Assembly: GCA_020050895.1 (NCBI GenBank)
Contig: JAGVJW010000172.1
Coordinates: 1 to 38,874 of the forward strand
Source: a bacterium
GTDB lineage: Bacteria; Bacteroidota; Ignavibacteria; Kapaibacteriales; Kapaibacteriaceae
Length of the DNA stretch: 38,874 nucleotides
Reading direction: 5' to 3'
Notes under the pieces: model-generated
Databases searched by the model: none
Told to the model about the DNA's origin: nothing
The model's input: the letters and a program-made list of their open reading frames with translations, nothing else
Position numbers and translations under genes: made by a program
Shown: positions 2,009 through 34,897 of the stretch, one piece after another
Position numbering within the stretch: position 1 is the first letter of the stretch
How the letters are laid out: each line of letters begins with the position of its first letter

Positions 2009-2104
2009 GCCGGGAAGTTGCCGGGAGCGATATGCTGCCGGGTAAGTTGCCGGGAGACATATGCTGCCGGGTAAGTTGCCGGGAGCGATATGCTGCCGGG
2101 GAAG
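2009..2104. repeat. Tandem repeat array A: 28+29+29 bp units plus a truncated fourth unit, consensus gccgggtaagttgccgggagMSatatgct
   Basis: Read directly from the sequence. Units are at 2009-2036, 2037-2065 and 2066-2094, with a partial unit at 2095-2104. Seven GCCGGG boxes alternate at 11-12 and 17 bp spacing. The array is intergenic, between the rho start and the first + strand ORF. Confidence 0.95.
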
Positions 2105-2150
2105 ATCTCACAACGTGTCACAAATCGATGTTAGAGGGCACGCAGCCATT

Positions 2151-2684
2151 ATGAAATCTCAGCTATTGCTTCGTGATCAGAGATTGACATCGGGTCTTCC
2201 GCGTTTCATGTTCTGGTTGTTGCCTTGTTGTGAAGGATGTCCACGTTTAAGGCTCCGATTTCGTTTCCTCCTTGTTACAGCCTGCATCGTTGCGGCACAG
2301 ATAATGGGTCTCGAGTACTATGCCTGTGCTCAAACAACAGCTCGTGTTGGCGTTTGCCAGCCTGCAGCGGGATTTGCCCGCAGAGGTGGAACTTCGGCTG
2401 TTATAGGATTGCCAGCCCCTTTTAGAGCAATACAACTGCCCAATCGTTCATCATCAACCTTGGTATCACCAGGCAGCATCGATGTGCCTTTGGAGTTTGG
2501 AAGCAGAGTTACATGGAAGGTGTATGATATGGGCGGCAGGGAAGTGCAGGCAGGAACATCAAATATTCCGGAAACAGGATCGCGATCAATTGACGTTGGC
2601 AGCACGCAGGGTCTGTGCCTGCTTGTGCTCACATCAGCAGATGGTCTGATAATCTTACGCAAGGCAGTGTTCTTCGGGCGCTAA
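2151..2684 (+). CDS. Small hypothetical protein consisting of little more than a T9SS-type C-terminal sorting domain; possibly a gene remnant
   Basis: The C-terminal ~75 aa (VSPGSIDVPLEFGSRVTWKVYDMGGREVQAG...GLCLLVLTSADGLIILRKAVFF) fit the Por secretion tail pattern. The N-terminal ~100 aa are Arg/Cys-rich and look poorly protein-like. The track start at 2061 lies inside the repeat array, so ATG 2151 or 2208 is more plausible. Confidence 0.4.
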   Translation: MKSQLLLRDQRLTSGLPRFMFWLLPCCEGCPRLRLRFRFLLVTACIVAAQIMGLEYYACAQTTARVGVCQPAAGFARRGGTSAVIGLPAPFRAIQLPNRSSSTLVSPGSIDVPLEFGSRVTWKVYDMGGREVQAGTSNIPETGSRSIDVGSTQGLCLLVLTSADGLIILRKAVFFGR

Positions 2685-2706
2685 TCAAGTGTTGGTAATT
2701 TGCACT

Positions 2707-3768
2707 ATGCAGATAGCATTCATCATTGCCGTACTCGTTGCCAGCAGTACCACACTTTTCGCCCAACCAAAGCTTTCACCACAACTGCAAAACCAACGGT
2801 TGTCTACCGCTCGTGGAGCACCTGTGCGTTCGCTTGACTATGCGCTTACGAAGCCGAACGACGTGACGGAATTGGACCTCAGCGGTCAGACGTTGGGTAC
2901 ACTGTCTGACGATGTTGGAAAACTATCGAACCTGAAGGTGTTGCGTCTGCGTTCAACAGGCCTGTCTTCTCTGCCGGAAGCGCTGAAGATGTGTTCGAAA
3001 CTCGAGGAACTCGACCTTTCAGAAAATGCATTCTTACAGGTCCCCTCTGTTATCAAGAGCCTGAAACGGCTTGAGCGGCTGTTCATGAGTGGCAACCGGT
3101 TTGCCAACCTTGATGAAAAAGCATTCAATGGATTATCGAACGTTAAAATTCTTTACATAAATCAATGTTCGATGAACGCTCTGCCAATGAGCATTGCGTC
3201 GTGCCTGGACCTGGTTGAACTCAGCATTGCTCAAAACTCTATACGCACCTTGCCGCAGGGCATGGAAAACCTGAAGCAGTTGCAGAAAATAGATGCTTCT
3301 ACAAACGCATTCATTGCCATCTCTCCTTTGCTGAAGTCAATGCAGGCGCTGACGTATCTTGATTTTTCTTACAACAAGATCAAGAACTTCGATCGAGATC
3401 TGCTCAAGCTTCCAAAGCTGAACTCGCTTATGTTAACGTCGAATGGCATTTCGTCCCTACCCGACAGTCTGCCAACGTCGTCTCTAAAAATTTTAAATCT
3501 GGATTCCAACCGGATCCGACAGCTTCCGCAATCAATTGGAAAGCTGACAGGACTTGAGGAATTGTATTTGGCAGGCAACGAGCTCACCACAATACCAGCC
3601 ACCATTGGTGAATGCTTAAACCTGATTGTCCTGGATTTATCGGGGAATAGCCTTACAAGTCTGCCCGTCGTCGAGTTGGCAAAGTTGCCGGGGCTCATGC
3701 ATCTGCGCATAGCAAACAGGGTGGTGGATGCACAAGGCCAGCAGGAGGAGCGGCGAAAAAAACCGTAA
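2707..3768 (+). CDS. Leucine-rich repeat (LRR) protein with N-terminal signal peptide
   Basis: From ATG 2707 the signal peptide reads MQIAFIIAVLVASSTTLFAQ. About 12 consecutive 23-aa LxxLxxLxLxxNxLxxLPxxI repeats follow (e.g. LSNLKVLRLRSTGLSSLPEAL, LTGLEELYLAGNELTTIPATI). The track start GTG 2689 is also possible. Confidence 0.8.
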   Translation: MQIAFIIAVLVASSTTLFAQPKLSPQLQNQRLSTARGAPVRSLDYALTKPNDVTELDLSGQTLGTLSDDVGKLSNLKVLRLRSTGLSSLPEALKMCSKLEELDLSENAFLQVPSVIKSLKRLERLFMSGNRFANLDEKAFNGLSNVKILYINQCSMNALPMSIASCLDLVELSIAQNSIRTLPQGMENLKQLQKIDASTNAFIAISPLLKSMQALTYLDFSYNKIKNFDRDLLKLPKLNSLMLTSNGISSLPDSLPTSSLKILNLDSNRIRQLPQSIGKLTGLEELYLAGNELTTIPATIGECLNLIVLDLSGNSLTSLPVVELAKLPGLMHLRIANRVVDAQGQQEERRKKP

Positions 3769-3783
3769 TATTGCGACTTATTC

Positions 3784-3857
3784 GGCGGGCGTAGCTCAGT
3801 TGGTAGAGCTCCAGATTGTGGATCTGGCTGTCGTGGGTTCAATCCCCATCGCTCGCC
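3784..3857 (+). tRNA. tRNA-His (anticodon GTG)
   Basis: The cloverleaf was folded by eye. G-1 is followed by acceptor gcgggcg/cgctcgc (one G-U pair). The D-arm is tagctcagttggtagagc and the anticodon stem is ccaga/tctgg with loop ttGTGga. The T-arm is gtggg-ttcaatc-cccat and the discriminator is C. CCA is not encoded. Confidence 0.9.
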
Positions 3858-3864
3858 CACCTGC

Positions 3865-3900
3865 AACGCCAACGGTGAACACCGGAGGCGTTTGTTGTTT
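3865..3900 (+). terminator. Hairpin plus interrupted U-tract after tRNA-His (possible partial terminator or processing structure)
   Basis: aacgcc-aa-cggt-gaac-accg-ga-ggcgtt is followed by tgttgttt. The outer stem is 6 bp and the inner stem 4 bp. The T-tract is interrupted by G residues, so termination is probably leaky. Confidence 0.35.
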
Positions 3901-3912
3901 ACGATTAGCGGT

Positions 3913-5649
3913 ATGATCACAATTGTTCTTCACACTCACATTCCATATGTCTTGCACCATGGTGCATGGCCGCATGGCAGCGACTGGCTTAGCGAAGCAG
4001 TAGCAGAGTGTTACCTGCCCCTTATCAAGATGTGCAGAGTGTTGCAGGACGAAGGGATACGACCCGGCATTACCTTCGATATTTCGCCGGTTCTGTGCGA
4101 ACAATTGGCGCACAAGGATTTTGCCGAAGTGTTCAGAAGCTACTGTGATGAACATGCAGCGCTTGCCGCAAAGGATAAGGAGCAATTCAGTCGGGAGGGG
4201 GCTAACGAACTGGCTTCGCTTGCAGAATATTGGGAGGAATGGTTCAATCAGAAATGGGTCGAGTTTGACCAAACTCTTGGCTCCGATATTCTCGGCGCTC
4301 TAAAACAACTTCAAGAAGAGAATGCCATCGAAATTATTACGTGTGGTGCCACCCACGGATATCTGCCTCTACTCGCTGAAGACGCAAACGTCGACCTGCA
4401 AATACGTGCCGCAGTAGAATCGCACCATAGACATTTCTCGAGGCATCCGCAAGGCATCTGGCTTCCTGAGTGCGCGTATCGTCCTGCATACGAATGGCGC
4501 ACCTACCTCCCTGTAAACGCCTACTCAATTGCTAAATATCGTGATGGTATTGAAGAGTTTTTGGTTCGGTACGGCTTGGAATATTTTGTAACAGACGAAG
4601 CAGCACTGAAGGGTGCACAGCCGCTGGCTTATCGGGGTCCCGATGGTAGACGTACACCGTACTCCGAAACTATTGGCGACGCTCGTGCCCAGCTCGAAGA
4701 GCGATCGCCGTTCGATATGTTTAGAATAGGCGGCTACAACCACGATGCCAGCTCGGCAGTCTTCGTCCGAAATATTGATGCTACCATGCAGGTTTGGAGT
4801 GGTAAAACCGGATATCCGGGAGATCCTGACTATCTTGATTTTCATAAAAGATACTTTCGATCTTCGCATCGGTATTGGCGTGTAACCGACAACACAGCCG
4901 ATATGCAGTACAAGCAGCTCTATGTACCCGAATGGGCAAACGGCAGAGCACTCAGCCATGCACGCCATTATGCAATGATCCTTGCTGATGCTGTGCGTTC
5001 AAGAATATCGCAGCATCCTACACGGATACCGACAGTTTGTTTGCCGTTCGATGCAGAATTATTCGGGCACTGGTGGTTCGAGGGGCCTTTATTTCTTGAG
5101 CATCTTATCCGTGAGCTGCATACGTTTCATGGTATCGGCACGTCGACGACAAGTGAGCAATTCGATCGTGTGAAGCCTGCAACGGAAGTTGCGCTGCCTG
5201 AATCGTCGTGGGGAAGGAACGGCAACCACGATGTATGGATGAACGATGATGTTCAGTGGACTTGGGAAAAGGAATACCGCATTGAACGATCAGTACGAAT
5301 GTTTTGCGAAAAACATGCAAAGGCTGCCTGCGATTCAACATTCAAACGGTTGATTGTAAACATGTTTCGGCAAATGATGCTGGTACAAGCTTCCGACTGG
5401 CAGTTTCTCATCTCAACTTTTTCGTCGCGCGATTATGCAGAACAACGATTCCATAACCATCTCTCAGATGCCGAACGGTTGCGCGATGCGGCCGAGCGTT
5501 ATATAACGTTGGGACGGCTGACGGATGAGGACAAAAATCATCTGGACGAATGTGAAATGCGGGATGAGATATTTGGTCCGGAATTGGAGTCATACGTATC
5601 TGACTTATTTACCGAATGCATCGAAATACCATTATCAACTGAGATATGA
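3913..5649 (+). CDS. Glycoside hydrolase family 57 protein, 1,4-alpha-glucan branching enzyme type
   Basis: GH57 signatures are present: IVLHTHIPYV...HG.WPHG..WL.EA..ECYLPL, ITCGATHGYLPLL, GIWLPECAY (nucleophile Glu region) and FDAELFGHWWFEG (acid/base Asp region). ATG 3913 is preferred over TTG 3892, which lies inside the hairpin after the tRNA. Confidence 0.85.
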   Translation: MITIVLHTHIPYVLHHGAWPHGSDWLSEAVAECYLPLIKMCRVLQDEGIRPGITFDISPVLCEQLAHKDFAEVFRSYCDEHAALAAKDKEQFSREGANELASLAEYWEEWFNQKWVEFDQTLGSDILGALKQLQEENAIEIITCGATHGYLPLLAEDANVDLQIRAAVESHHRHFSRHPQGIWLPECAYRPAYEWRTYLPVNAYSIAKYRDGIEEFLVRYGLEYFVTDEAALKGAQPLAYRGPDGRRTPYSETIGDARAQLEERSPFDMFRIGGYNHDASSAVFVRNIDATMQVWSGKTGYPGDPDYLDFHKRYFRSSHRYWRVTDNTADMQYKQLYVPEWANGRALSHARHYAMILADAVRSRISQHPTRIPTVCLPFDAELFGHWWFEGPLFLEHLIRELHTFHGIGTSTTSEQFDRVKPATEVALPESSWGRNGNHDVWMNDDVQWTWEKEYRIERSVRMFCEKHAKAACDSTFKRLIVNMFRQMMLVQASDWQFLISTFSSRDYAEQRFHNHLSDAERLRDAAERYITLGRLTDEDKNHLDECEMRDEIFGPELESYVSDLFTECIEIPLSTEI

Positions 5650-6536
5650 CTGTAAAGTTGTCGTCTGTCATCAAGCAGATGCGAATGCATCAGTGGGTTA
5701 AAAACCTGTTGCTATTTGTCCCGCTCGGACTTGCGCACAGAATCCAGCATCTTGATGAGTTGGGCAGTGTTCTTCTCGCTTTTGTTGCATTCAGTTTTTG
5801 TGCGAGCGCCATTTACACGATCAACGACGTTGTGGACCTTGATGCCGACAGGCAGCACCCAACAAAGCGCAATCGGCCGATACCTTCGGGAACAATTTCG
5901 ATACCGTTAGCATTCGTGTTATCGGTCCTGCTGATCGTGATTTCAGGAGTGATAGCCGTTTTATGGACCAACGTCGATTTTATTGGTTGGCTTGCCATCT
6001 ACTTTGTTGTTACCACTCTCTATTCGTTTTGGCTGAAAAAGCTAGTGCTGGTAGACGTTATTACACTTGCGCTTCTCTATGTACTCAGGATTGAAGCTGG
6101 TGCCGAGGCTGCTTCCGTGACCGTATCGCCTTGGTTGCTGGCTTTCTCTTTGTTCCTTTTTTCAAGTCTAGCGTTTCTAAAACGCTATACCGAACTTCTG
6201 CTAACAGTCGAAACGGAGCAGACGCATGCAGCGCGGCGCGGATACGAGAGGGGAGACGCAGATTTTACCATGGTGGCTGGAACGGCTCTTGGTTTTATCG
6301 CCATCCTGGTGTTAACTCTTTATATCAGCAGTGCAGATGTTCAAAAACTTTACAATCACCCCTACCGGTTGTGGTACATCATTCCGTTTCTGACGTATTG
6401 GATTGCACACCTTTGGCTTACCTCTCATCGCGGGAAGATGCACGACGACCCGATTTTATTTGCCATAAAAGATTTGCGGAGCTACCTTGTTATGGCAGCC
6501 TCCATCGCAGTGATGGTTTGGGCGTCGCTGCCATGA
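5646..6536 (+). CDS. UbiA-superfamily prenyl-phosphate 5-phosphoribosyltransferase (decaprenyl-phosphate phosphoribosyltransferase-like, Rv3806c type)
   Basis: 296 aa and polytopic. The motif NDVVDLDADRQHPTKRNRPIPSG matches the NDxxDxxxDxxHPxKxxRP signature of the DPPR synthase branch of UbiA enzymes. Its start overlaps the GH57 stop (ATGA). Confidence 0.8.
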   Translation: MTVKLSSVIKQMRMHQWVKNLLLFVPLGLAHRIQHLDELGSVLLAFVAFSFCASAIYTINDVVDLDADRQHPTKRNRPIPSGTISIPLAFVLSVLLIVISGVIAVLWTNVDFIGWLAIYFVVTTLYSFWLKKLVLVDVITLALLYVLRIEAGAEAASVTVSPWLLAFSLFLFSSLAFLKRYTELLLTVETEQTHAARRGYERGDADFTMVAGTALGFIAILVLTLYISSADVQKLYNHPYRLWYIIPFLTYWIAHLWLTSHRGKMHDDPILFAIKDLRSYLVMAASIAVMVWASLP

Positions 6537-7822
6537 CTACTGGCAACACCGATTCGTGGGGACGCACTGTAGCGTCGCTTCCAGCCGAAGTCATCGACGT
6601 TGATTCCAGCTTCAAAGCCTTTGAGCCGTCCGGTCGTCAATATCTGCCTTATGGTTTGGGTCGTAGTTACGGAGATGTTTGCCTTAACAATGGCGGAACA
6701 TTGTTGCGAACGCGCCGACTTAACTCAATTCTTGAGTTCGATGCATCTACGGGTGTGATGAAGGTTGAGTCTGGGGCAATTCTTGTTGATGTTCTTAACA
6801 CCGCTTCAGCCAAGGGATGGTACCTTCCGGTAATTCCTGGAACCGGTTTCGTAAGCATTGGTGGTGCTCTTGCAAATGATATTCACGGCAAGAACCATCA
6901 CAGGCGTGGAACTTTTGGTTGCCATGTGATTGCCCTTGAACTGCTTCGCTCCGATGGTTTGCACCATGTGTGCAGTAAGGAGCAAAATGAAGGGTTGTTC
7001 CGCGCAACGATTGGCGGAATGGGACTTACAGGAATGGTTACGTGGGTGCAGATTCAATTGATGAAGATTGGGTCTACACGAATTGCTACGCAAACAACTG
7101 CGTGTAAGTCTTGGCACGATATCATACAGGTGCTGCACGACCAGGATGAACAACATGAGTACACAGTTGCATGGGTCGATGCTAAACGTGGTAGGGGGCA
7201 TGTAATCGCTGGAAATCACTTGAATGACGGCATCTATGACCGACACATGTCGGCTACGTTGCCATTTGCACCACTGCTTCGCGCTGTGCTTTTCGATGCC
7301 ACCGCCGATTTACACAATATTGTAAGGTTTTTTAGCATGCCGTCGGGGACAAAGCCTGGCATCATGTCGGCATCGAAATATTTTCATCCGCTCGATGTTG
7401 TGCCGCGGTGGAACACTGCTTACGGAGATTCTGGATTTTTTCAGTATCAGTTTGTTGTTCCGTATGAACACGGAATTTCTGCCATAGAGTCTGTCATCAG
7501 GATTCTTCAATCTCATGATATTATTTCATATCTGAGCGTACTGAAAATCTTTGGTACGAAAATGTCGCCTGGTATCATGTCGTTTCCGCAGCCTGGCCTA
7601 ACGTTAGCTCTGGATGTACCGCACAAAGGAGCATCGACTCTTGCGGCATTGTCGAAGTGCGACGAAGTAATCCTAAAACATGGCGGACGCATTTACCCCG
7701 CTAAAGATGCCAGAATGTCTGCTGACACATTTCAGAAAATGTACGAGCGGCAACTGCTGGCATTCAGGTCACACCTGGATCCTCATTTTTCTAGTACGTT
7801 TTGGAGAAGAGTTATCCAATGA
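6533..7822 (+). CDS. FAD-dependent oxidoreductase, DprE1-like (decaprenylphosphoryl-beta-D-ribose 2'-oxidase family)
   Basis: YGLGRSYGDVCLNNGG...LPVIPGTGFVSIGGALANDIHGKNHH and the C-terminal GGRIYPAKDARMSADTF closely resemble mycobacterial DprE1 as I recall it. The true start is ATG 6533, overlapping the UbiA stop (ATGA). The track start at 6131 is an out-of-frame overlap with the UbiA gene. Confidence 0.8.
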   Translation: MTTGNTDSWGRTVASLPAEVIDVDSSFKAFEPSGRQYLPYGLGRSYGDVCLNNGGTLLRTRRLNSILEFDASTGVMKVESGAILVDVLNTASAKGWYLPVIPGTGFVSIGGALANDIHGKNHHRRGTFGCHVIALELLRSDGLHHVCSKEQNEGLFRATIGGMGLTGMVTWVQIQLMKIGSTRIATQTTACKSWHDIIQVLHDQDEQHEYTVAWVDAKRGRGHVIAGNHLNDGIYDRHMSATLPFAPLLRAVLFDATADLHNIVRFFSMPSGTKPGIMSASKYFHPLDVVPRWNTAYGDSGFFQYQFVVPYEHGISAIESVIRILQSHDIISYLSVLKIFGTKMSPGIMSFPQPGLTLALDVPHKGASTLAALSKCDEVILKHGGRIYPAKDARMSADTFQKMYERQLLAFRSHLDPHFSSTFWRRVIQ

Positions 7823-7837
7823 GAGGCTGATTATAGT

Positions 7838-8581
7838 ATGCTAACAGCTAAGAATATCGTAATTATTGGTGCAACCAGCGCGATTGCGCAGGGAGTTGCT
7901 GCATTGTATGCAGAGGTGGGGTCGAGATTTTTTCTTGTAGCGCGCAACCAGACAAAAACGGTCGATATCGCCTCGAGACTTAAGGAATTCGGAGCAGAGC
8001 ACGTTGCTGTATTTATTACAGACCTTCGAATTCGGGATGATCATAATGCATTAGTTGAAGCAGCTTTCAAGGATTTGAAAACAATCGATCTTGTGTTGAT
8101 TGCACATGGTGTATATCCTAACATGACGGATGCAGAGCGGGATGTGGATATCATGCTGGACATTGTGATGACGAACATCGTCAGCACCTTCTCCATCATC
8201 CACCGGTTTGCCAACGCCATGCGTAACGCAGGTCGGGGAACCATTGCAGTCATTTCATCCGTGGCTGGAGAACGTGGACGCAGTAGTAACTATATTTATG
8301 GATCAACAAAATCCGCGCTTACTGCCTATGCGTCTGGCTTGCGAGCCTCACTGGCTGGTTCCGGTGTGCATGTACTAACGGTGTTGCCTGGACCAGTTGC
8401 CACACCAATGACGGTGAGTCATCATGCACCCTTCGAGTCGTCAGTCGATCAAGTAAGTCGATCAATTACTAACGCAGTCGAACGACGCAGGAAGGTCCTC
8501 TACACGCCTTGGTATTGGCGTTGCATCATGCAAGTAATAAAGATGCTGCCGGAATCCGTGTTTATGAAGATCAAACGATAG
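7838..8581 (+). CDS. Short-chain dehydrogenase/reductase, DprE2-like by size and context
   Basis: 247 aa. It has the Rossmann motif IIGATSAIAQG and the SDR catalytic Y-x3-K (YGSTKSAL). It lies 15 nt after the DprE1-like gene. Confidence 0.7.
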   Translation: MLTAKNIVIIGATSAIAQGVAALYAEVGSRFFLVARNQTKTVDIASRLKEFGAEHVAVFITDLRIRDDHNALVEAAFKDLKTIDLVLIAHGVYPNMTDAERDVDIMLDIVMTNIVSTFSIIHRFANAMRNAGRGTIAVISSVAGERGRSSNYIYGSTKSALTAYASGLRASLAGSGVHVLTVLPGPVATPMTVSHHAPFESSVDQVSRSITNAVERRRKVLYTPWYWRCIMQVIKMLPESVFMKIKR

Positions 8582-8596
8582 GATGCGTGGCAGAGG

Positions 8597-10636: not shown

Positions 10637-10699
10637 GTTCGATGGTTTGTTTAATTCGATGATTGTAGAACAAGCGCTATGACGATTGCAATCAACAAG

Positions 10700-24414: not shown

Positions 24415-24426
24415 TCGGAGAGAATT

Positions 24427-24741
24427 GTGGCATTACCATCATCATCAATGCGTGACGGAATGAGAGATCGAGATTCATCTCTCAACAACCCGAACACGAT
24501 TAATTCACCTTTTCGTCAGAAGCGAAATCAGCCACGAAAGAGAACGAACCCTCTCAAGCAATCACGCTTGATTGATTATCTCGATCCCAAATTTCTTGGG
24601 CGCTTTACGAACGATCAGGGGAAGATTCTCCCACGCAGAATTACTGGCGTTACGGCACTGCAGCAGCGGCGTCTAACCCGTGCCATCAAGTATGCCCGCC
24701 ACCTGGCATTGTTGCCATTCGTAGCCCAAGACACACGCTAG
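24427..24741 (+). CDS. rpsR: 30S ribosomal protein S18 with an N-terminal low-complexity extension
   Basis: The core [50 protein letters not shown] is typical S18. GTG start; internal ATGs at codons 8 and 12 are alternative starts. Confidence 0.85.
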
Positions 24742-24788
24742 CAACGAGGTCGGTTTCATGCCGATCGCTCTCAACTATCAACCAATTT

Positions 24789-24860
24789 TGGGGCGTCGCC
24801 AAGTGGTAAGGCAGCGGATTTTGGTTCCGCCATTCGTAGGTTCGAATCCTGCCGCCCCAG
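24789..24860 (+). tRNA. tRNA-Gln (anticodon TTG)
   Basis: Folded by eye. Acceptor tggggcg/cgcccca has a U1-A72 pair. The anticodon stem is gcgga/tccgc with loop ttTTGgt. The T-arm is gtagg-ttcgaat-cctgc and the discriminator is G. Confidence 0.9.
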
Positions 24861-24887
24861 CATAGGAATGTCACTCCAAAGGAACGC

Positions 24888-25844: not shown

Positions 25845-25877
25845 CAGAGTATATCAAAATATCCCAAGGGTGAATCA

Positions 25878-26486: not shown

Positions 26487-26541
26487 CTGCGCACCGGGTT
26501 TGCACGAGTGCATGCCCCTTACATAAACATGAATTGTTTAA

Positions 26542-26567
26542 AGGAGTCCACTGGACTCCTTTTTTTT
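26542..26567 (+). terminator. Rho-independent terminator of prs-rplY
   Basis: aggagtc-cactg-gactcct is followed by ttttttt. Confidence 0.8.
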
Positions 26568-26594
26568 ATGGATCAATACGCGGAGAATCAGTGC

Positions 26595-26626
26595 AAAAAA
26601 AAACCCGGAGAAATAAAGACTCCAGG
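26595..26626 (-). terminator. Orphan rho-independent terminator on the minus strand
   Basis: The minus strand reads cctggag-tctttattt-ctccggg followed by nine T. There is no minus-strand CDS upstream of it before ispG, about 3 kb away. Confidence 0.6.
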
Positions 26627-26790
26627 TATGAGCATCTGGCGCGGCACTCAGGGGAGAGAGTATCGCTCAACTCAGCATCAAAGTTATTGTTTCTTGTGCG
26701 TAATGACAAAAATCATTTTTACTCACTTGCCAGAAAGTAAGTTTTGTACCGGTTAAAACTGAAATGACAACGACTTGAAAAGAAAAGAAA

Positions 26791-27366
26791 ATGAAAGCGT
26801 TGACAGGTGCAGTCGCTCTCTTTTTAGCACTCCAGTGCTTGGGAGCAAGTGAAAAGCACACGCTGAAGACAGTCAGCATGAAGATAGAGGGGACGTCGAC
26901 TCTTCACGATTGGACCACAAAGGTCAATACTGTAAGGGCTAACGGAGACTTTACTGTACAAAATGACCAGCTTATCGAAGTTGTGTCCATGTGGGTTCAG
27001 GCCGACGCCAAGTCGATCGTTAGTGAGAAGGGTGACGACATGGACGAAAAAATTTACGAAGCTCTTAAAGCCGAAGAACACCCCACCATAACGTTCAACC
27101 TCTCAACAGTAAAGTCAATCACCAAAACAGGTTCCGAGTGGATAGTTGAAACCAAGGGTGACCTGACGATTGCCGGTAATAAGCAATCCATCGATCTGAC
27201 GGTTAAGGCAAGCATTATCGAAAGCGGCGTCGTACGATTTACTGGAACAAAGAAAATCAAGATGTCGCAGTTCAACATTGATAGGCCATCAGCAATGCTC
27301 GGATTAATTAAATCCGGTGATGAGGTGGTAATCACATTTGACGTTTCAATGAAGAAGAATTCTTGA
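26791..27366 (+). CDS. YceI-like periplasmic (polyisoprenoid-binding type) protein
   Basis: 191 aa with a signal peptide. YceI pattern: IEGTSTLHDW...HPTITF...GDLTIAGNKQSIDL...FNIDRP....GDEVVITFDVS. Confidence 0.8.
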   Translation: MKALTGAVALFLALQCLGASEKHTLKTVSMKIEGTSTLHDWTTKVNTVRANGDFTVQNDQLIEVVSMWVQADAKSIVSEKGDDMDEKIYEALKAEEHPTITFNLSTVKSITKTGSEWIVETKGDLTIAGNKQSIDLTVKASIIESGVVRFTGTKKIKMSQFNIDRPSAMLGLIKSGDEVVITFDVSMKKNS

Positions 27367-27415
27367 CTATGATAATTCGCACAACCACTATACTTCAACG
27401 TTCGAGGGCAAGATC

Positions 27416-28816
27416 ATGAAAAGTCCGGTAAGGTTAGTTGGTGTAACAGCCTGTTTGTTATTGGCGACTACACAAATGAAGGCGCAATTGTTTCCCGACA
27501 TGCAGTTTTATCGACCGTCAGACAAGACCGGCATTAACATCTTTGAAACGACAAAAGACACGTCTCCCTATGACGGAATGAAATTCCGCCTAGGTGGTGG
27601 CTTCACGCAGCAATGGCAGTCGCTGCAACATGAAAACACTGCAAATCCCTACTGGAGAAAATTCAATGGAGGTGCAGATTCCATCAACTATAACGCTCTT
27701 TACGGAATCACTCCTGGTTTTAACACCGCTTCGGCAAACCTACTCATTGATGTGCAGCTTGAAGATGGGGTGAGGCTTAACTTAACGACGTACTTAGCAA
27801 CACGCCGGCACCAGGATACCTGGGTCAAAGGTGGCTATATTCAATTCGATCGCCTGCGTTTTCTGGGCAGTGAGTTTATTGATAACATCATGGAGTATCT
27901 GACCATAAAGATTGGCCATACAGAAATCAACTATGGTGATGCCCATTTCCGCAGGACCGATGGAGGTTTGTCGATATATAACCCGTTTGCTGAGAATTAC
28001 ATTGTCGACGCCTTTACAACAGAAATCGGCGGTGACGTTACCTTCCAGCACCCATCCGGATTGCTTGCAGTGCTCGGCCTCACCAACGGCGAAATCAAAG
28101 GCGCTGTCGATCCTGTAACTCCCGGAACTGGAGACACAACAACAACAAAATCCCCATCTATCTATTTCAAGGCTGGATTTGATAAAAAATTTGGCGATGC
28201 TTTTCGAGTTCGTTTAACTGGCTCCGGGTATTTGAATGATGCCTCACCTCGGAATACTCTCTTTAATGGAGACAGAGCAGGTTCCTATTACTTTCTGGTA
28301 ATGGAGAGTCAGGCAGCAAATTATTCCTCAACATCTACATCGGCGAGTAGCATGAAACCAACAACAACGGCGCAGGCTATTTCCGGTCGCTACGATCCAA
28401 ACTTCTCCAGATCGATTCAAGCGTTTGTTATTAATGGACTTTTGCAGTTTTCCAGGTTTGAATTGTTTCTCAACTACGACATCGCTTCAGGACGGACCGC
28501 AAACGAAGTTGAGGACAGGAGCATGAGTCAGCTTGCTGGTGATTTGATTGTCAGATTAGGTTCGAACGATCAGTATTATCTAGCAGGGCGCTACAACCTT
28601 GTTAATACGGAAACGTTGGGAATTCTTGATGCAAATGGTGCTCAAGCCGAGCAACAAATCAGCCGTATTGCCTTTGCAGCAGGCTGGTTTCTAACAAAGA
28701 GCATTTTGATTAAAGGTGAATACGTTATTCAGGAATACAAGGATTTCCCGATAACTAGTATTTTCAATGGTGGGAAATTTAGTGGCGTTGTTTTCGAAGC
28801 GGCTGTTGGGTTTTGA
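27416..28816 (+). CDS. Outer-membrane beta-barrel protein (porin-like)
   Basis: 466 aa. The signal peptide ends ...TTQMKAQ. The body has alternating beta-strand character rich in aromatic and Gly residues, and the C-terminus ...FEAAVGF ends in the terminal Phe typical of OMPs. Confidence 0.7.
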   Translation: MKSPVRLVGVTACLLLATTQMKAQLFPDMQFYRPSDKTGINIFETTKDTSPYDGMKFRLGGGFTQQWQSLQHENTANPYWRKFNGGADSINYNALYGITPGFNTASANLLIDVQLEDGVRLNLTTYLATRRHQDTWVKGGYIQFDRLRFLGSEFIDNIMEYLTIKIGHTEINYGDAHFRRTDGGLSIYNPFAENYIVDAFTTEIGGDVTFQHPSGLLAVLGLTNGEIKGAVDPVTPGTGDTTTTKSPSIYFKAGFDKKFGDAFRVRLTGSGYLNDASPRNTLFNGDRAGSYYFLVMESQAANYSSTSTSASSMKPTTTAQAISGRYDPNFSRSIQAFVINGLLQFSRFELFLNYDIASGRTANEVEDRSMSQLAGDLIVRLGSNDQYYLAGRYNLVNTETLGILDANGAQAEQQISRIAFAAGWFLTKSILIKGEYVIQEYKDFPITSIFNGGKFSGVVFEAAVGF

Positions 28817-28879
28817 AAAACGAGTTCGTGGACTAGTCGCGATTTTGCTGAATATGACTGTACGCGTAAAGAAGAACTT

Positions 28880-28919
28880 CCAACCTGCATGCAGCTTGTG
28901 TGCAGGTTGGTTGTTTTTT
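28880..28919 (+). terminator. Rho-independent terminator after the OMP gene
   Basis: ccaacctgca-tgcagcttgtg-tgcaggttgg is followed by ttgtttttt. Confidence 0.8.
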
Positions 28920-28985
28920 CATCAGTTATTCAAATTGCAGTCACGACGTACAATCAGAGTCATTCGGTCTACCACTGTGTCCTTG

Positions 28986-29579
28986 ATGTTGTTTTTTGGA
29001 CTGAGCGTAATCGTAGGTTTTATTCCTGCATCATCCATCATTGTTGCTTATGAGATTGATGAGCAAAGCAGCCTCTACATTGAGGGGTCTTCAAACGTGA
29101 ACCGTTTCGACTGTGCATTGAAAGACCAATTTTCAAAGGCAGAGGCGCACGTGACGTTTGCTGAAGGGGGCAGGATAATGTTGTTTGACATGGCTACTTT
29201 GACCCTTCGAACAGCAGGCCTTGACTGCGACAATGAGATGATGAACGAAGATTTACTGAAAACCATGAAAGCGGACCAATATCCGTACATCACTGTGTCT
29301 TTGAAATCAGCAAAGGTTATCGAAGGCAGCTTGGATAATATAGGCGAATCAGCACGATTAAAAGCTGAAGCATTGTTTACTATCACACATGTGAGGAGAA
29401 CTGTAATTCTCGACGTCAAGGCATGGAGAATGTCAGAAAATCAATTCAGATTCACGAGTTCTGCATCGCTTAGGATGACTGATTATGACATCGAACCACC
29501 AAGCGTTTTGTTTGGCCTTATTAAAGTTCGAGATAAGATATCGTTGAAATTCGATCTTATTACAAAAACATTGAATTGA
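28986..29579 (+). CDS. Second YceI-like protein
   Basis: YceI pattern: LYIEGSSNVNRF...YPYITVSL...ALFTITHVRRTVILDV...YDIEPP....RDKISLKFDL. The track start at 28767 would read through the OMP stop region and the terminator at 28880-28919. ATG 28986 (or TTG 28935) gives a signal/anchor MLFFGLSVIVGFIPASS. Confidence 0.7.
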   Translation: MLFFGLSVIVGFIPASSIIVAYEIDEQSSLYIEGSSNVNRFDCALKDQFSKAEAHVTFAEGGRIMLFDMATLTLRTAGLDCDNEMMNEDLLKTMKADQYPYITVSLKSAKVIEGSLDNIGESARLKAEALFTITHVRRTVILDVKAWRMSENQFRFTSSASLRMTDYDIEPPSVLFGLIKVRDKISLKFDLITKTLN

Positions 29580-29606
29580 GTGCAAGAATGTTGAACCGAG
29601 TGCTAC

Positions 29607-31478
29607 CTATACTCGGTCAATCCATCTGCCATCATCTTTGATAATCTTTACAAGTTCAGTTACGGCCTCTGCAGTGGGTACGTTACGCTTAACAATCGTC
29701 TGCCCCTTATACAATGTGATGCGCTCAGGTCCAGAGCCAACATAACCGTAATCTGCATCCGCCATTTCACCAGGGCCGTTAACGATGCAGCCCATGACAC
29801 CAATTTTTACACTTTTCAGATGATCGGTATGAGAGCGAATAAGGCTTGTTGTCTCCTGTAGGTCGAACATAGTTCTTCCGCAAGAGGGACAGCTTATGTA
29901 TTCAGTCTTTGTCATTCGCATTCTTGTTGCTTGAAGTATACCCAATGGTAATGCAACATGTCTGCCAATCATGATACCGTTGCCAAATCCATCAATGAAA
30001 ATACCGCCTACATCCGATGATGCGTTCAACAACAACTCATTAGCATCTATAGCGTTGGAATGATATCGAACAACAACAGGTGTGTGAACGCTATTGTCTT
30101 CAAGCCGTTGGAAAGCCGACCGTATGTCGTGATACCAAAAAGCATCGCTACCCTGTAAAAGCAAAACTGCTGTGCTATCCCTGCCAAGCGCAAACATCAA
30201 ATCATCAGATAAATCACTTGCAGAGCACGAAACTACATTCATAACCGAATGCTGCTGTCCATTGGAAAGATACTGTGCTGGCGTAAATAGAGGCACGCAA
30301 AACAATTTATCATGGAGGTTCATCCAAACCGGAATATCAACAACCTGACGGATCCCTCCTGGTGCCATAAATGGGAGGGGGTTGCTGCCAACGTACAGAA
30401 ATTCTGCAGCCTGATCAAGCATCGTCCATTTATCGGATTGAGAATCGTAAACATGACCTAACGAAGAAAGATCGTTATAATTATTTAACTTCTCATTCGA
30501 TACGTCTACAAATAAGCGGGGTACGTTATCGGCGCCAACCGATGCCACATGCGTAGTAGACCGGCGATGGAAGCCTGGGGATATGTGCACCGACGTTTGA
30601 TATACATTACGCTGCCGGTGTGCCAAGGCGGCGGCAACAGGAATCTCCGCTTCGGGTTCTTCGGTGAGCGAAACGCGTATGGTGTCGCCAATACCATCTT
30701 CCAGAAGGGTGCCAATACCTGCAGCGCTTTTAATTCTTCCGTCGTCGCCATCTCCAGCCTCCGTAACACCCAGGTGGAGTGGGTAGGGTTTCAAATGCTC
30801 TTCCTGCAAACGCTGTGTAAGCAATCTGTAGGCTTGAACCATGACGACTGGATTGCTGGACTTCATTGAAAGGACAATGTTGTAGAACCTTTCATCTTCG
30901 GCAATGCGGAGGAATTCCAGTGCCGATTCAACCATACCGGCTGGACTATCGCCATAACGGTTCACAATTCTATCGCTGAGAGATCCGTGATTTGTACCGA
31001 TACGCATTGCTGTTCCATATTCCTTACAGATGCGAACAAGAGGTACAAACCTGGTTCTGATTCGATCTAATTCCGCAGCATACGATGCATCATCATATTC
31101 AACGACAGCGAACTGTTTTTTATCGGCGAAATTCCCCGGATTTATTCTGACTTTTTCTACAATACGCGCAGCAATTTCAGCGGCATTTGGCGTGAAATGT
31201 ATGTCGGCTACAAGAGGCGTATGGTAGCCCCTTTCATGAAGTCCATCACGGATATTCTGAAGATTTTTTGCTTCTCTAATGGAAGGAGCCGTAATACGCA
31301 CTAGCTCGCATCCAGCGTTAATCATCCGAATCGACTGTTCGATTGTTGCCAACGTGTCCATCGTGTTAGTCGTCGTCATTGACTGTACACGAATAGGGAA
31401 CTTCGAACCCACCGACAGTTCGCCGATGTTCACATCAATTGTGGGTCGTCGGTTGTCGATGGTGGTTATAGAAGTCAT
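29607..31478 (-). CDS. ispG: 4-hydroxy-3-methylbut-2-en-1-yl diphosphate synthase (IspG/GcpE), long form with inserted domain
   Basis: 623 aa. An N-terminal TIM-barrel part (VQSMT.T.T.D) and a C-terminal 4Fe-4S part (ISCPSCGR...GCIVNGPGE) are separated by an insert of about 250 aa. Confidence 0.9.
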   Translation of the reverse strand: MTSITTIDNRRPTIDVNIGELSVGSKFPIRVQSMTTTNTMDTLATIEQSIRMINAGCELVRITAPSIREAKNLQNIRDGLHERGYHTPLVADIHFTPNAAEIAARIVEKVRINPGNFADKKQFAVVEYDDASYAAELDRIRTRFVPLVRICKEYGTAMRIGTNHGSLSDRIVNRYGDSPAGMVESALEFLRIAEDERFYNIVLSMKSSNPVVMVQAYRLLTQRLQEEHLKPYPLHLGVTEAGDGDDGRIKSAAGIGTLLEDGIGDTIRVSLTEEPEAEIPVAAALAHRQRNVYQTSVHISPGFHRRSTTHVASVGADNVPRLFVDVSNEKLNNYNDLSSLGHVYDSQSDKWTMLDQAAEFLYVGSNPLPFMAPGGIRQVVDIPVWMNLHDKLFCVPLFTPAQYLSNGQQHSVMNVVSCSASDLSDDLMFALGRDSTAVLLLQGSDAFWYHDIRSAFQRLEDNSVHTPVVVRYHSNAIDANELLLNASSDVGGIFIDGFGNGIMIGRHVALPLGILQATRMRMTKTEYISCPSCGRTMFDLQETTSLIRSHTDHLKSVKIGVMGCIVNGPGEMADADYGYVGSGPERITLYKGQTIVKRNVPTAEAVTELVKIIKDDGRWIDRV

Positions 31479-32401
31479 ATCTGACGGCTGACTTCGAAGA
31501 GAATCCTCTTCTCCTTTTCAGTTAGACTGTGATAACCTGCCTGCGAAATTTTGTCGAGGATTGCATCGATTTGTTCTTGTGTTATGCGTTCGCCATCAAT
31601 GATAAATCTTGTTAGCGTTCCTGCAGGCTCTGGAGCTTCGGGCTGGGAATGTGTCTGTGTTCGGCGCGAAGCGAGCGGCTCGGTTGGAAGGTCGCGGAAC
31701 TCAGCTTCGACGTATTGTGGCCGACGTCGGCTCCGTGCAGAGCCTTTCCGCTCTATCACACGAAACAGAGGTTCTCCAAACTTCAACATCAGGAAACCAC
31801 CCAATGCTCCACCGAGGTGGGCAAAGTGTGCAACACCATCGCCGGAACTGGTAACACCAAGCACAAGGTCGAGAGCTGCATACATCAGAACGAAGATTCG
31901 TGCAGGTATTGGGAAAAAGATTGGGAACATCATCACTGGTCTATCGGGAAAGATGAGTCCAAATGCGAGCAGCACACCCATGATTGAACCAGACGCTCCC
32001 ACAGTTGGAGCTGCGGCCCCACTGAGCATTGGTGTAATGATGATATGGACAATAGCAGCCGAGACTCCAGCAAGAGTATAATAGGTGGCAAATCTTCGTG
32101 TGCCCCAAATATTTTCGAGCTCCATGCCAAACATCCAGAGGGCAAGCATGTTAAAGAAAATGTGCCCAAATCCTCCGTGCAGATATTGGTAGGTGATCAC
32201 CTGCCACGGCATAAATCCTCCGTCAAGCGGCCACAAAGCAAACATGCTTATCAATGTGTCGCTTAATGATACGCCTTGATAGGTAAGCCCTACCGAGAAC
32301 ATACTCGTTAGAAGGAAGATCCCAACATTGCCGAAGAGAAGAAATTTTATAAAAGGCGGGAAGACGCTAAAACCGCGTCCTCCTGGAAAAGCAGGTGACA
32401 T
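31475..32401 (-). CDS. Rhomboid family intramembrane serine protease with C-terminal cytoplasmic extension
   Basis: Rhomboid motifs are present: YQYLHGGFGHIFFNM, the catalytic GASGSIMG and AHLGGALGG. A tail of about 90 aa ends ITQEQIDAILDKISQAGYHSLTEKEKRILF. Confidence 0.85.
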   Translation of the reverse strand: MSPAFPGGRGFSVFPPFIKFLLFGNVGIFLLTSMFSVGLTYQGVSLSDTLISMFALWPLDGGFMPWQVITYQYLHGGFGHIFFNMLALWMFGMELENIWGTRRFATYYTLAGVSAAIVHIIITPMLSGAAAPTVGASGSIMGVLLAFGLIFPDRPVMMFPIFFPIPARIFVLMYAALDLVLGVTSSGDGVAHFAHLGGALGGFLMLKFGEPLFRVIERKGSARSRRRPQYVEAEFRDLPTEPLASRRTQTHSQPEAPEPAGTLTRFIIDGERITQEQIDAILDKISQAGYHSLTEKEKRILFEVSRQI

Positions 32402-32404
32402 GAG

Positions 32405-33595
32405 TTATTTGTTTAATGCTGCAACACCGGGCAGCGTTTTACCTTCGAGGTATTCAAGAGAGGCACCACCTCCTGTTGAAACGTGTGTGACGGACGTAGA
32501 TAGACCGAATTGCGATATGGCCGCTGCACTGTCTCCTCCACCGATGATTGTAATTGCTCCCTTTCTTGTTGATTCGGCCATTGCGCTGGCAATTGCTCTT
32601 GTTCCATGCGAAAAATTAGGCATTTCAAATACACCCATCGGACCGTTCCATACAACGGTACCTGCATTAGCGATCATCGATGAATATGTTTCAACCGTTG
32701 AGGGACCAATATCCATGCCCATCCAGTTCTGTGGAATGTGATCAACGTCAACGATTTGTGTTTGGGCATCATTGGAAAAAGCATCAGCCACAACTGCATC
32801 GGCAGGTACAGCAAGATTAACACCCAGAGCACGTGCGCTGTCGAGCAGGGTCTTCGCAGTATCGATTCGATCTTCTTCAACTAACGACGTTCCGATCTCC
32901 TTTCCCATGGCTTTCAGGAATGTATACATCATCCCTCCGCCGATGAGAATTGCATCACACTTCCCAAGAAGTGAAGAGATGACTTCGATCTTACCGCTGA
33001 TCTTTGATCCTCCCAGGACGCTGATAAATGGACGCTGTGGCTTTTCGAGAGCGCTTCCGAGATACTGCAATTCCTTTAGCATCAACAGTCCGGCGCAAAC
33101 GGTGTCGAACAATGCAGCCACACCGCTAGTGCTCGAATGTGCTCTATGAGCTGTTCCAAAGGCATCGTTGCAATACACATCGCCCAGCATGCGCAGCTGT
33201 TTACAAAAGGCCGAGTCGTTACCTTCTTCCCCGGCATGAAACCGGAGGTTTTCCAACAGTATGATTTGGTTTGGCGCTGCAGACCGGACGAGATCTTCAA
33301 CTTCTTTACCAATACAATCTGGCGCAAACAGCACTTCTTTGTGCGTTAGGTCTGCAAGGCGCTCAGCAACCGGATTCAGAGAATATTTTTCGTTGCGCTT
33401 CCCATTGGGCCGTCCCAGGTGCGACATGAGGACGGGTATGCCACCGCGTGAAACAATAGATTCAATTGTCGGAAGCGATTCACTGATCCGTGTGTCATCG
33501 GTGATGCGACGCTCGTCATCCTGAGGAACATTAAAATCAACTCTGGTCAATATTTTTTTGCCCCTTACATCAACGTCAGTAATTGACCTGATCAC
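32405..33595 (-). CDS. pgk: Phosphoglycerate kinase
   Basis: 396 aa with RVDFNVP, LENLRFH and GGGDSAAA motifs. It overlaps gap by 4 nt. Confidence 0.95.
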   Translation of the reverse strand: MIRSITDVDVRGKKILTRVDFNVPQDDERRITDDTRISESLPTIESIVSRGGIPVLMSHLGRPNGKRNEKYSLNPVAERLADLTHKEVLFAPDCIGKEVEDLVRSAAPNQIILLENLRFHAGEEGNDSAFCKQLRMLGDVYCNDAFGTAHRAHSSTSGVAALFDTVCAGLLMLKELQYLGSALEKPQRPFISVLGGSKISGKIEVISSLLGKCDAILIGGGMMYTFLKAMGKEIGTSLVEEDRIDTAKTLLDSARALGVNLAVPADAVVADAFSNDAQTQIVDVDHIPQNWMGMDIGPSTVETYSSMIANAGTVVWNGPMGVFEMPNFSHGTRAIASAMAESTRKGAITIIGGGDSAAAISQFGLSTSVTHVSTGGGASLEYLEGKTLPGVAALNK

Positions 33596-34581
33596 CGAGC
33601 CACCCTCATCAGTAAGTCAACGATGCGGTTTGAATAACCCCATTCGTTATCGTACCAGCCAACAACCTTAACAGTATTTCCATTAACCATGGTTAGGCTT
33701 GAATCAAAGATGCATGAGTGGGAATTGCCAATGATGTCGCTGGAAACCAACTGATCCTCCGAATACTCAAGGATTCCGAGCATCGAAGTAATTGCTGCCT
33801 CGTGAAATGCTGCATTTACATCATCTTTTGACGGCGACTTGGTTAATACAACCGTCAGGTCGGTAACAGAGCCATCTGATACCGGAACACGAAATGCTAA
33901 ACCATCAAGACGTCCTTTCACTTCGGGGATGACTTCGCTCACTGCCTTAGCTGCCCCTGTTGTGGTTGGAATAATATTCATGGCAGCTGCCCTTGACCGG
34001 CGCAGATCTTTATGAGGAAGGTCGAGAATGTTTTGGTCGTTAGTATATGCGTGAACAGTTGTCATGAATCCACGCTCGATGCCAAAAGCATCATGCAGCA
34101 CCTTAACCATGGGCGCAAGGCAGTTTGTAGTGCACGATGCATTAGAGAGCGTCTTTTCCTTGCCTGTAAGCAGGTCTTCGTTAACACCAAGAACTACAGA
34201 TGCATCGAGGGCATCCTTTGCTGGTGCCGTTAGGATTACTTTTTTTGCATGCTTAAGATGTTTTTCGCAGTCGGCCTTGGTAGTATACTTTCCGGTTGAC
34301 TCAATAACGATATCAAGATCTGACCACGGCAGATTTTCAATTTGTTTTTCGGCCGTAATTGCAGTTTTATCGCCGTTAACAACAAGGTTGTTGCCATCGA
34401 TGCTTACAACGCCGCTAAAGCGGTGGTGTGTAGAATCGAATTTGAGAAGATGGGCGAGTGTCTTAGCATCGGTAAGGTCATTAATCCCTACGATGTCTAC
34501 ATCTAGATTGTTGTCCTTGATGATTCGAAAAACAAGCCGACCGATTCGGCCAAAACCGTTGATACCAATGCGGATTGACAT
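33592..34581 (-). CDS. gap: Glyceraldehyde-3-phosphate dehydrogenase
   Basis: From ATG 34581 it reads MSIRIGINGFGRIGR, and the catalytic SNASCTTNCLAP motif is present. The track start at 34617 is an upstream TTG and is unlikely. Confidence 0.95.
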   Translation of the reverse strand: MSIRIGINGFGRIGRLVFRIIKDNNLDVDIVGINDLTDAKTLAHLLKFDSTHHRFSGVVSIDGNNLVVNGDKTAITAEKQIENLPWSDLDIVIESTGKYTTKADCEKHLKHAKKVILTAPAKDALDASVVLGVNEDLLTGKEKTLSNASCTTNCLAPMVKVLHDAFGIERGFMTTVHAYTNDQNILDLPHKDLRRSRAAAMNIIPTTTGAAKAVSEVIPEVKGRLDGLAFRVPVSDGSVTDLTVVLTKSPSKDDVNAAFHEAAITSMLGILEYSEDQLVSSDIIGNSHSCIFDSSLTMVNGNTVKVVGWYDNEWGYSNRIVDLLMRVAR

Positions 34582-34771
34582 GAAATCCTCTGCACTTCCA
34601 TAAAGAGTGAATAACAAGTTGTGTTGAATTCAGATAGCAAAAATACCAATACACAACCGACGCAGAGGCATATCTATTTTCTTTGGTAAGGTCTCATTTT
34701 GAGAAACATCTTCAGTTGAGAGCGCCACTGTTTTTGAGTTACAACAGGTTAAGGGTCTATTGATGAATCTT

Positions 34772-34897
34772 TCCCGGCAAGTTACCCGGCAGCATATGCC
34801 TCCCGGCAAGTTACCCGGCAGCATATGTCTCCCGGCAAGTTACCCGGCAGCATATGTCTCCCGGCAAGTTACCCGGCAGCATATGTCTCCCGGCAAG
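34772..34897. repeat. Tandem repeat array B: four 29-bp units plus a truncated fifth, unit tcccggcaagttacccggcagcatatgtc; reverse complement of array A units with one mismatch
   Basis: Read directly from the sequence. Units are at 34772-34800, 34801-34829, 34830-34858 and 34859-34887, with a partial unit at 34888-34897. Units 2-4 are identical and unit 1 differs in 1 nt. The array is intergenic, between the ruvC stop (34919) and the gap start. Confidence 0.95.

Follow-up and report, generated by a model that had tools for sequence, protein, structure and literature searches.

We propose that two arrays of a 29-nt tandem repeat in a 38,874-nt stretch of DNA from a Kapaibacteriaceae bacterium (Bacteroidota, Ignavibacteria; GenBank assembly GCA_020050895.1, contig JAGVJW010000172.1; hereafter the window) are most probably independent members of a lineage-restricted, dispersed family of extragenic repeats of the repetitive extragenic palindromic (REP) type, genetically tied to one clade of REP-associated tyrosine transposases (RAYTs), which are nucleases of the HUH/Y1 type. 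The arrays, A and B, are inverted with respect to each other and lie on either side of 32.7 kb of core genes, an arrangement that is a coincidence of repeat density. An initial annotation, made from the sequence alone, had treated them as a specific pair while listing a dispersed repeat family among its alternatives; it is that alternative which is borne out by the arrays counted in the nearest relative.

The arrays were delimited by Tandem Repeats Finder (TRF) and by chains of the box TGCCGGG:

2009 to 2104, plus strand: array A, period 29, 3.3 units, 91% matches (TRF and box chain)
34773 to 34895 (TRF span 34772 to 34897), minus strand: array B, nine boxes, period 29, 4.3 units, 98% matches

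Each unit has the form TGCCGGG-N5-TGCCGGG-N10, with a box spacing of 12 and 17 bp, and the units abut head to tail without spacers in both arrays. Unit 2 of array A, GCCGGGTAAGTTGCCGGGAGACATATGCT, has a single mismatch to the reverse strand of array B, and both arrays finish with a truncated end, a box followed by (G/A)AAGAT(C/T) (array A, ...TGCCGGGgaagatc; array B on the minus strand, ...TGCCGGGaaagatt). In these structural points, namely the inverted 29-bp arrays and their positions, the 28/29 identity, the paired direct boxes and the common terminus, the initial annotation was accurate. A search of the window for the 29-mer with up to three mismatches returned five matches, compared with 0.00 in shuffled sequences, and TTGCCGGGA gave eight compared with 0.42. 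The box TGCCGGG occurs 21 times against an expectation of 4.09; 15 occurrences lie inside the two arrays, and the remaining six are at chance level. The arrays are not CRISPRs, as they hold no unique spacers and no cas domain was found among the scanned window open reading frames (ORFs).

The dispersed nature of the family became apparent when prokaryotic genomes, one for each species, were scanned for triplets of boxes with the 12/17-bp spacing; 68 loci were returned. Thirty-three of these come from JACPPD01, an Ignavibacteria metagenome-assembled genome (MAG) and the closest available genome to the window, and carry 36 arrays of 3-10 boxes in both orientations. With at least 36 arrays in ~2.07 Mb, the density in JACPPD01 is one array per 34-57 kb, at which two arrays fall into a 38.9-kb window by chance with P = 0.15-0.32, opposite orientation being an even chance; the multi-copy count is that of the relative, since for the source genome only the 38.9-kb contig was scanned. 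The window and JACPPD contig 10 are 87-88% identical at the nucleotide level, and contig 10 carries both arrays at orthologous sites and in the same orientations (L043 for A, L066 for B), the arrays being more conserved than the flanking DNA. The unit number nevertheless differs at the orthologous B locus, with 2.3 units in JACPPD (spacer TAACA) versus 4.3 in the window (TAACT), as in a minisatellite or variable-number tandem repeat (VNTR). The copy count that the initial annotation had envisaged therefore yields scattered arrays in both orientations and a copy number that varies at orthologous sites. Across 122 units from 38 arrays (36 of JACPPD and the two of the window) only 5 of 29 positions are variable, with the consensus TGCCGGGAG[AG][CG]ATATGCTGCCGGG[TG]AA[CG][AT]. 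Units differ on average by 1.6 mismatches within an array and by 3.0 between arrays; this uniformity within arrays points to local gain and loss of units.

Beyond JACPPD01, nine of the 68 loci belong to the MAG RX1 (GC 59%), with the variant unit TGCCGGGTGAGT TGCCGGGGAAGCTAGCT, and when metagenome contigs were scanned more strictly, for four boxes, five contigs emerged; all come from sample Ga0315912 and represent a more distant relative with the variant unit TGCCGGGTGATC TGCCGGGAGGCATATGC. Between genomes the box spacing and the central palindrome are kept and the spacer sequences change. Most other loci of the species-level scan are isolated 3- or 4-box matches in high-GC genomes. Single arrays with the 12/17-bp spacing and other spacers were seen in an Actinomycetes MAG (L040:7790-7854, centre AGATCT), an unclassified MAG (L054:2207-2259) and a Streptomyces (L055:6957-7009); they could be convergence, chance or distant family members. 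The array pattern had zero matches in viral contigs, plasmids and phages, and a phage or plasmid origin was rejected for lack of matches in those collections.

The arrays of JACPPD are all intergenic, 20 of them in tandem, nine in divergent and seven in convergent spacers, compared with a background of 133, 32 and 35; in the tandem spacers 14 arrays are co-oriented with the genes and six are antisense. Where an array faces the 3' end of a gene, the median separation is 41 nt (many lie at 0-35 nt); where it faces a 5' end, it is 158 nt. The same position pattern relative to ORFs has been published for REP elements (PMC3733652). In RX1 the arrays reach into the final codons of genes, and ...PATHPAS, encoded by the repeat, is the C-terminus of several proteins. 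In three RX1 genes (L002:125-1162, L002:1239-1697 and L064:2217-3290), named by eye from their translations as ACR3-type arsenite transporter-like, low-molecular-weight phosphatase/ArsC-like and pirin-like, the C-termini ...(A/D)(T)HPAS are read from the reverse strand of the repeat, and the arrays substitute for the last codons and provide the stop codon. In the Ga0315912 locus L070 (420-3082) the rpsU spacer consists of an intrinsic terminator, a 29-nt array directly after it and then an additional ~2.4 kb that includes a second array and a gene for a BNR-repeat protein; the orthologous JACPPD spacer (L022:3379-3651) is only 272 nt long and has a pair of perfect hairpins. These hairpins belong to a second repeat family on the same box, ATGCCGGGTATC-[TCTT or AAGA]-GATACCCGGCAT, with stems of up to 17-18 bp (-20.4 kcal/mol, z = -10.9), of which ten exact copies were found in JACPPD loci, often as pairs with opposite loops, and none in the window:

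L004:3391-3474, L007:1850-1877, L019:3139-3166 and L019:4029-4113: perfect hairpin copies
L022:3562-3634, L039:1067-1094 and L066:782-809: perfect hairpin copies

The tie to a transposase family comes from the genes that stand among such repeats. On JACPPD contig 8 a 197-aa ORF (L001:2525-3118) lies between two arrays of the window's 29-nt family. It matches Pfam Y1_Tnp (E = 3.4e-14) and NCBIfam NF047646 (REP-associated tyrosine transposase, equivalog; 88.4 bits, cutoff 80), and its sole PDB match is 4ER8, the TnpA-REP of Escherichia coli; the RAYT clade shows no variation in its HUH histidines or its catalytic tyrosine. The array upstream of this gene finishes in a perfect 24-nt palindrome (3177-3200) made by one inverted unit. 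A RAYT 50% identical to it, at the start of a metagenome contig (L069), ends 5 nt ahead of a 29-nt array. Six more RAYTs of the clade, 51-58% identical, each have CCGGG-core tandem direct repeats on both sides:

L074, second RAYT of JACPPD: flanks of 12-nt ACGCCGGGAGAA and related units
L075, ENA ERZ5073207: upstream 12-nt AACGCCGGGAGA; downstream GTGCCAG-type 7-nt repeats, then CGCCGGGAGAA
L076, GCA_038202665.1: 11-nt TCCCGGCAGCC, the reverse complement of GGCTGCCGGGA
L077, Ignavibacteria GCA_016708405.1: about ten 28-nt units on each side (RAYT P0010)
L078, Bacteroidota GCA_018266735.1: 11-nt units, inverted junction at CAGCTG
L079, JGI 3300027850: 11-nt units, inverted junction at CAGCTG

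All eight RAYT loci examined from this clade are therefore flanked by CCGGG-core tandem repeats, with units of 11, 12, 28 or 29 nt, and the repeat sequence shifts along with RAYT divergence. Inverted junctions within the flanking arrays occur in L076, L078 and L079. Separate 12-nt tandem families, ACGCCGGGAGAA, CACCGGGACAAT and CACCCGGTCAAT (L074:2272-2415, L074:3460-3522 and L045:5588-5660), surround the second RAYT of JACPPD and also abut some 29-nt arrays (upstream flanks in L039 and L048).

Each unit of the window family is predicted to form a hairpin, CCGGGAG-RSATATG-CTGCCGG, with a 7-nt loop, six Watson-Crick pairs and one G.G mismatch, followed by an 8-nt linker. Three units folded together as single-stranded DNA reach a predicted -22 kcal/mol (z = -4.6). 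Because the CCGG core is self-complementary, neighbouring head-to-tail copies can, on these models, pair with each other in single-stranded DNA. The 28-nt unit of L077, CCGGGAG-TCTTACT-CTCCCGG-AGTCATG, has a perfect 7-bp stem and a 7-nt loop; the window unit is identical to it in the 5' arm and in loop length and is changed in the other arm, whereby the G.G mismatch arises and the two arms become the direct TGCCGGG boxes. A comparable hairpin is also kept in the RX1 variant, where the loop and the inner part of the stem differ.

The history of array B can be read from its spacer, which has the following features:

34919 to 35473, minus strand: ruvC (Pfam RuvC, E = 1.4e-47), upstream of array B
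34910 to 34925, minus strand: left 16-nt direct repeat aaaatagtggtgcctc, which includes the ruvC stop codon
34896 to 34909, minus strand: left arm aattaccttgatct, inside the segment missing from L080 and L082
34681 to 34772, minus strand: accessory module of ~92 nt abutting the 3' side of array B ("long form")
34665 to 34680, minus strand: right 16-nt direct repeat aaaatagatatgcctc; homology to the empty site restarts at 34664
34638 to 34645, minus strand: TATTTTTG, candidate gap -7 box, downstream of the insertion and conserved in L080
33592 to 34581, minus strand: gap (GAPDH; Pfam Gp_dh_N and Gp_dh_C), downstream of array B

Array B begins 23 nt past the ruvC stop codon and lies 190 nt ahead of the gap start codon. 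The ruvC-gap spacer is 337 nt long in the window and only 91-92 nt in L080 (GAPDH 89% identical) and L082 (75%), both of which keep the order GSDH-yebC-ruvC-gap-pgk. The 245 nt missing from these relatives correspond to window positions 34909-34665 and comprise the 14-nt left arm, the array, the ~92-nt module and one copy of the 16-nt direct repeat. Array B is therefore a recent insertion, which the window and JACPPD alone have in common. The 16-nt repeats match at 13 of 16 positions (p about 0.03) and are not conserved in L066; among the long forms such flanking direct repeats are clear in L044, marginal at B and L022 and absent elsewhere, including L066, and they are significant at just one of 11 long forms besides B, so that a target duplication at B is uncertain. 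The 92-nt module adjoins 12 arrays (nhmmer E = 1e-16 to 1e-23), is missing along with the array from empty sites and was never free-standing in the fetched loci. It was rejected as a structured RNA (RNAalifold gave a consensus of 0 pairs, and Rfam matched two tRNAs only in the window) and as the gap promoter, since the TATTTTTG box, a candidate -7 promoter element of gap of the Bacteroidota type, lies downstream of the insertion and is kept in empty sites. Flanking inverted repeats or a closing stem were likewise rejected as a general feature of the arrays, Smith-Waterman scores against shuffles being significant in two of 48 (L018a and L044). In two long forms (L044:3500-3810 and L057:1570-1770) the left arms (TAGTGTCTCAGTTTGA...) are inverted copies of the right end of the module, and beyond its two ends L044 carries a direct repeat matching at 15 of 16 positions (TACAGCTTAATGC...), a MITE-like look (miniature inverted-repeat transposable element) that most copies do not share.

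Site A differs from site B in its surroundings and in its past:

536 to 1840, minus strand: rho (Pfam Rho_RNA_bind, Rho_N and ATP-synt_ab), transcribed away from array A
2117 to 2142, plus strand: leader-like motif GTCACAAATCGATGTTAGAGGGCACG, between array A and the start of the ORF at 2151

Array A lies in the spacer from which rho and a small ORF (2151-2684, plus strand) diverge, the ORF being followed by a gene for a leucine-rich repeat protein. A relative whose Rho is 97% identical (L083) has a degenerate array at this site in the opposite orientation, bracketed by two direct copies of GTCACAAGCTGCTGTT[AT]GGGGGC, and in another (L084, Rho 93% identical) the site has no array. Array A is therefore the older of the two and underwent rearrangement in one lineage. 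The two arrays have separate histories, because B is missing where gene order is kept and A is inverted and degenerate in another relative; for the two junctions whose synteny the initial annotation had singled out, the comparison thus returns, outside JACPPD, an intact ruvC/gap order without array B and an A site that is either inverted and decayed or array-free.

Site A also shares a motif with RAYT loci. The sequence GTCAC is invariant among seven RAYT leaders (the interval from array to start codon), window site A and L043, and the 12-mer GTCACAAGCTGC is common to the leader of the L001 RAYT (L001:3156-3171) and to two copies at the A site of L083 (2146-2161 and 2347-2362), these two leader-motif copies being the direct repeats around the inverted, decayed array. 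As a weak lead, the motif at site A could have been left behind by a RAYT locus, or could serve as a promoter or operator that both kinds of site have in common. A descent of the window A region from the second RAYT locus (L074) was rejected, since no DNA or protein similarity extends beyond the repeats.

Several observations weigh against the assignment of the family to REP/RAYT systems. No RAYT gene lies in the 38.9-kb window, and the link to RAYTs comes from the genome of a relative. The GT(A/G)G head is absent, with neither GTAG nor GTGG in the units and an invariant flank of G[T/G]AA. The head-to-tail layout is atypical: most REPs in the literature form inverted doublets or clusters of alternating orientation, and head-to-tail ones are reported to be rare. 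The flanks of the L001 RAYT are co-oriented direct arrays with one inverted unit and no clean inverted pair. The single-unit hairpin is weak, with a predicted -5.4 kcal/mol as single-stranded DNA and a modest z of -2.2. The 92-nt module is unaccounted for by a REP/RAYT origin. Transposition by Y1 enzymes (the IS200/IS605 mechanism) makes no target duplication, and the flanking direct repeats of B and L044, inconsistent across copies, sit badly with it.

An alternative is that the arrays are minisatellites or MITE-like insertions that spread independently of RAYTs, by another transposase or by recombination carrying the 92-nt module, the RAYTs merely residing in repeat-rich spacers. Cut-and-paste with target duplication fits B and L044 better than Y1 transposition does: B is a discrete 245-nt insertion with a possible 16-nt direct repeat, L044 adds inverted ends to its direct repeat, and the module accompanies 12 arrays. 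We nonetheless regard this explanation as unlikely. Flanking direct or inverted repeats are significant at only one to three of 12 long forms and two of 48 arrays, no other transposase was seen beside the arrays in ~300 kb of loci, and the CCGGG-core flanks recur at all eight RAYT loci in several genomes, changing as the RAYTs diverge. Slightly harder to sustain is a regulatory function, in which the arrays would be clusters of binding sites for a sequence-specific protein (a response regulator or nucleoid protein) that acts on the direct TGCCGGG boxes and regulates gap and the small ORF by rho. The box sequence and its spacing are invariant within and between genomes while the spacers drift, A and B are each oriented toward the downstream gene, B sits just upstream of the candidate gap promoter, and both are retained at orthologous sites and more conserved than their flanks. 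Such a function is, however, improbable for arrays in the seven convergent spacers, where there is no promoter, for the six that are antisense to both neighbours, and for those that lie 0-35 nt past a stop codon or, in RX1, overlap gene 3' ends; the gap promoter box is intact and identical in array-free relatives, and the recurrent neighbour protein is a transposase-family nuclease and no regulator.

That A and B are functional partners, either as the ends of a mobile or invertible segment or as drivers of a 32.7-kb inversion, is extremely improbable and close to refuted. Over ~90-125 bp they are roughly 93% identical in inverted orientation, which could support a RecA-dependent inversion, and REP clusters are known recombination substrates. 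But a chance pair is expected at the density of the family, B is absent where gene order is kept, and A and B differ in age. Both flanks of array B are collinear in the window and JACPPD, so there was no inversion with a breakpoint at B. The analysis gives no sign of the large inversion entertained in the initial annotation and no support for its specific pair. The interior consists of housekeeping genes (those for UbiA, FtsH, a TilS-type PP-loop protein, Dus, MreB, MreC, SMC, Prs, L25, IspG, a rhomboid protein, PGK and GAPDH), among which domain scans found no transposase, integrase or recombinase, in agreement with the initial annotation.

Other features of the window lie outside the family. 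Scans for sigma-70 promoters and terminators around both arrays gave nothing exceeding shuffle level. A relation of array orientation to replication direction was considered and dropped, as the GC skew of the window tracks gene strand and gives no information on it. The sole Rfam matches at the gathering threshold are the tRNA genes at 3785-3857 and 24789-24860. At 26543-26700, 3' of the L25 gene, a terminator-like hairpin ggagtccactggactcc with a T run is followed by ~100 nt of non-coding DNA that is strongly conserved at L066:545-700 and has no Rfam match at that threshold. The ~2.9 kb at 26745-29614 (GC ~0.44), with two YceI-domain ORFs and a 466-aa ORF without a Pfam match, are absent from the relative (L066:755-863), which has ~100 nt there including one perfect CCGGG hairpin.

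By analogy with E. coli TnpA-REP and with the system of REPINs (REP doublets forming hairpins) and RAYTs (PMC2817692, PMC3116915, PMC5581495), a REP/RAYT mechanism for the window family would run as follows. The genome would encode, at one or two other loci, a RAYT that recognises these hairpins in single-stranded DNA; by cutting and rejoining there, it would seed copies in trans. The arrays would then expand and contract locally by slippage or unequal exchange, a step supported by the copy number that differs at orthologous sites and by the greater uniformity of units within arrays. Array B came as the 245-nt block of array plus module, which was inserted past the ruvC stop codon and ahead of the gap core promoter. 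Stabilisation of mRNA 3' ends, transcription attenuation and service as a recombination substrate are candidate effects on the host.

A further, rather doubtful possibility is that one RAYT clade, in Ignavibacteria and neighbouring lineages of the Bacteroidota group, swapped the inverted REP/REPIN substrate for head-to-tail, minimal CCGG-core hairpins of 11-12 or 28-29 nt. If true, this would mean a different, unit-by-unit amplification driven by the RAYT on single-stranded DNA, and it would make a host role at gene boundaries possible, given that arrays are retained at orthologous sites with higher conservation than the flanking DNA.

For annotation, this means that the inverted arrays delimit neither a mobile island nor an invertible core segment. 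The family would also extend REP/RAYT systems beyond the well-studied Proteobacteria, in a form that is nearly always head to tail on the conserved box TGCCGGGAG, and would offer a compact substrate for questions of RAYT recognition and array growth; the variation in unit number between close relatives may provide strain markers for an uncultured lineage. We found no paper tying Ignavibacteria to REP/RAYT repeats of this kind.

Among known systems, Tn7-type ends, to which the initial annotation likened the arrays along with recombinase site arrays, resemble A and B in having short direct repeats that look like binding sites, several at each of two inverted locations and unequal in number. Here, however, there is no TnsB-type transposase, the interior holds core genes, solitary arrays occur by the dozen, and one array is missing in relatives with shared gene order, with no all-or-none segment; neither analogy is retained. 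The MIRU-VNTRs (mycobacterial interspersed repetitive units) and the pneumococcal BOX elements are dispersed intergenic tandem repeats with a strain-variable number of units, mosaic with accessory modules. They resemble the window family in that unit number varies at the same locus (4.3 versus 2.3 at B) and have no sequence relation to it; we know of no RAYT associated with either.

The initial annotation could name no described element with this unit, yet the repeats fit the REP/RAYT systems, though in an atypical head-to-tail form. Like the REPs and bacterial interspersed mosaic elements (BIMEs) of E. coli with their RAYT (TnpA-REP/YafM, 4ER8; PMC2817692), they are short, extragenic, multicopy repeats whose units are predicted to form hairpins, cluster near gene 3' ends and accompany a single-copy Y1/HUH gene that is flanked by the same repeats. 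Unlike those, they run head to tail instead of alternating, lack the GT(A/G)G head, have a predicted stem of only 7 bp with a mismatch, flank their RAYTs as direct arrays where described RAYTs have inverted REPs, and reside in Ignavibacteria, not Proteobacteria. The BIME layout of alternating, regularly spaced REPs is not seen in these co-oriented units; a mosaic character is given by the 92-nt module. The GTAG- and CGTC-tagged palindromic repeats, which include families with very short stems of 5 bp (PMC3733652), are alike in their distribution relative to ORFs and in forming clusters by reiteration, and unlike in the tag, as the window family has neither GTAG nor CGTC. In the REPIN-RAYT system of Pseudomonas it is an inverted doublet that replicates, and arrays in tandem are the exception, evenly spaced ones being rare in P. 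fluorescens SBW25 (PMC3116915), whereas the window family is normally arranged in tandem, with doublets confined to occasional inverted junctions. The two systems nevertheless have in common REP clusters beside each RAYT, a repeat type that matches the RAYT type, tandem arrays in both orientations, and vertical inheritance with arrays kept at orthologous sites.

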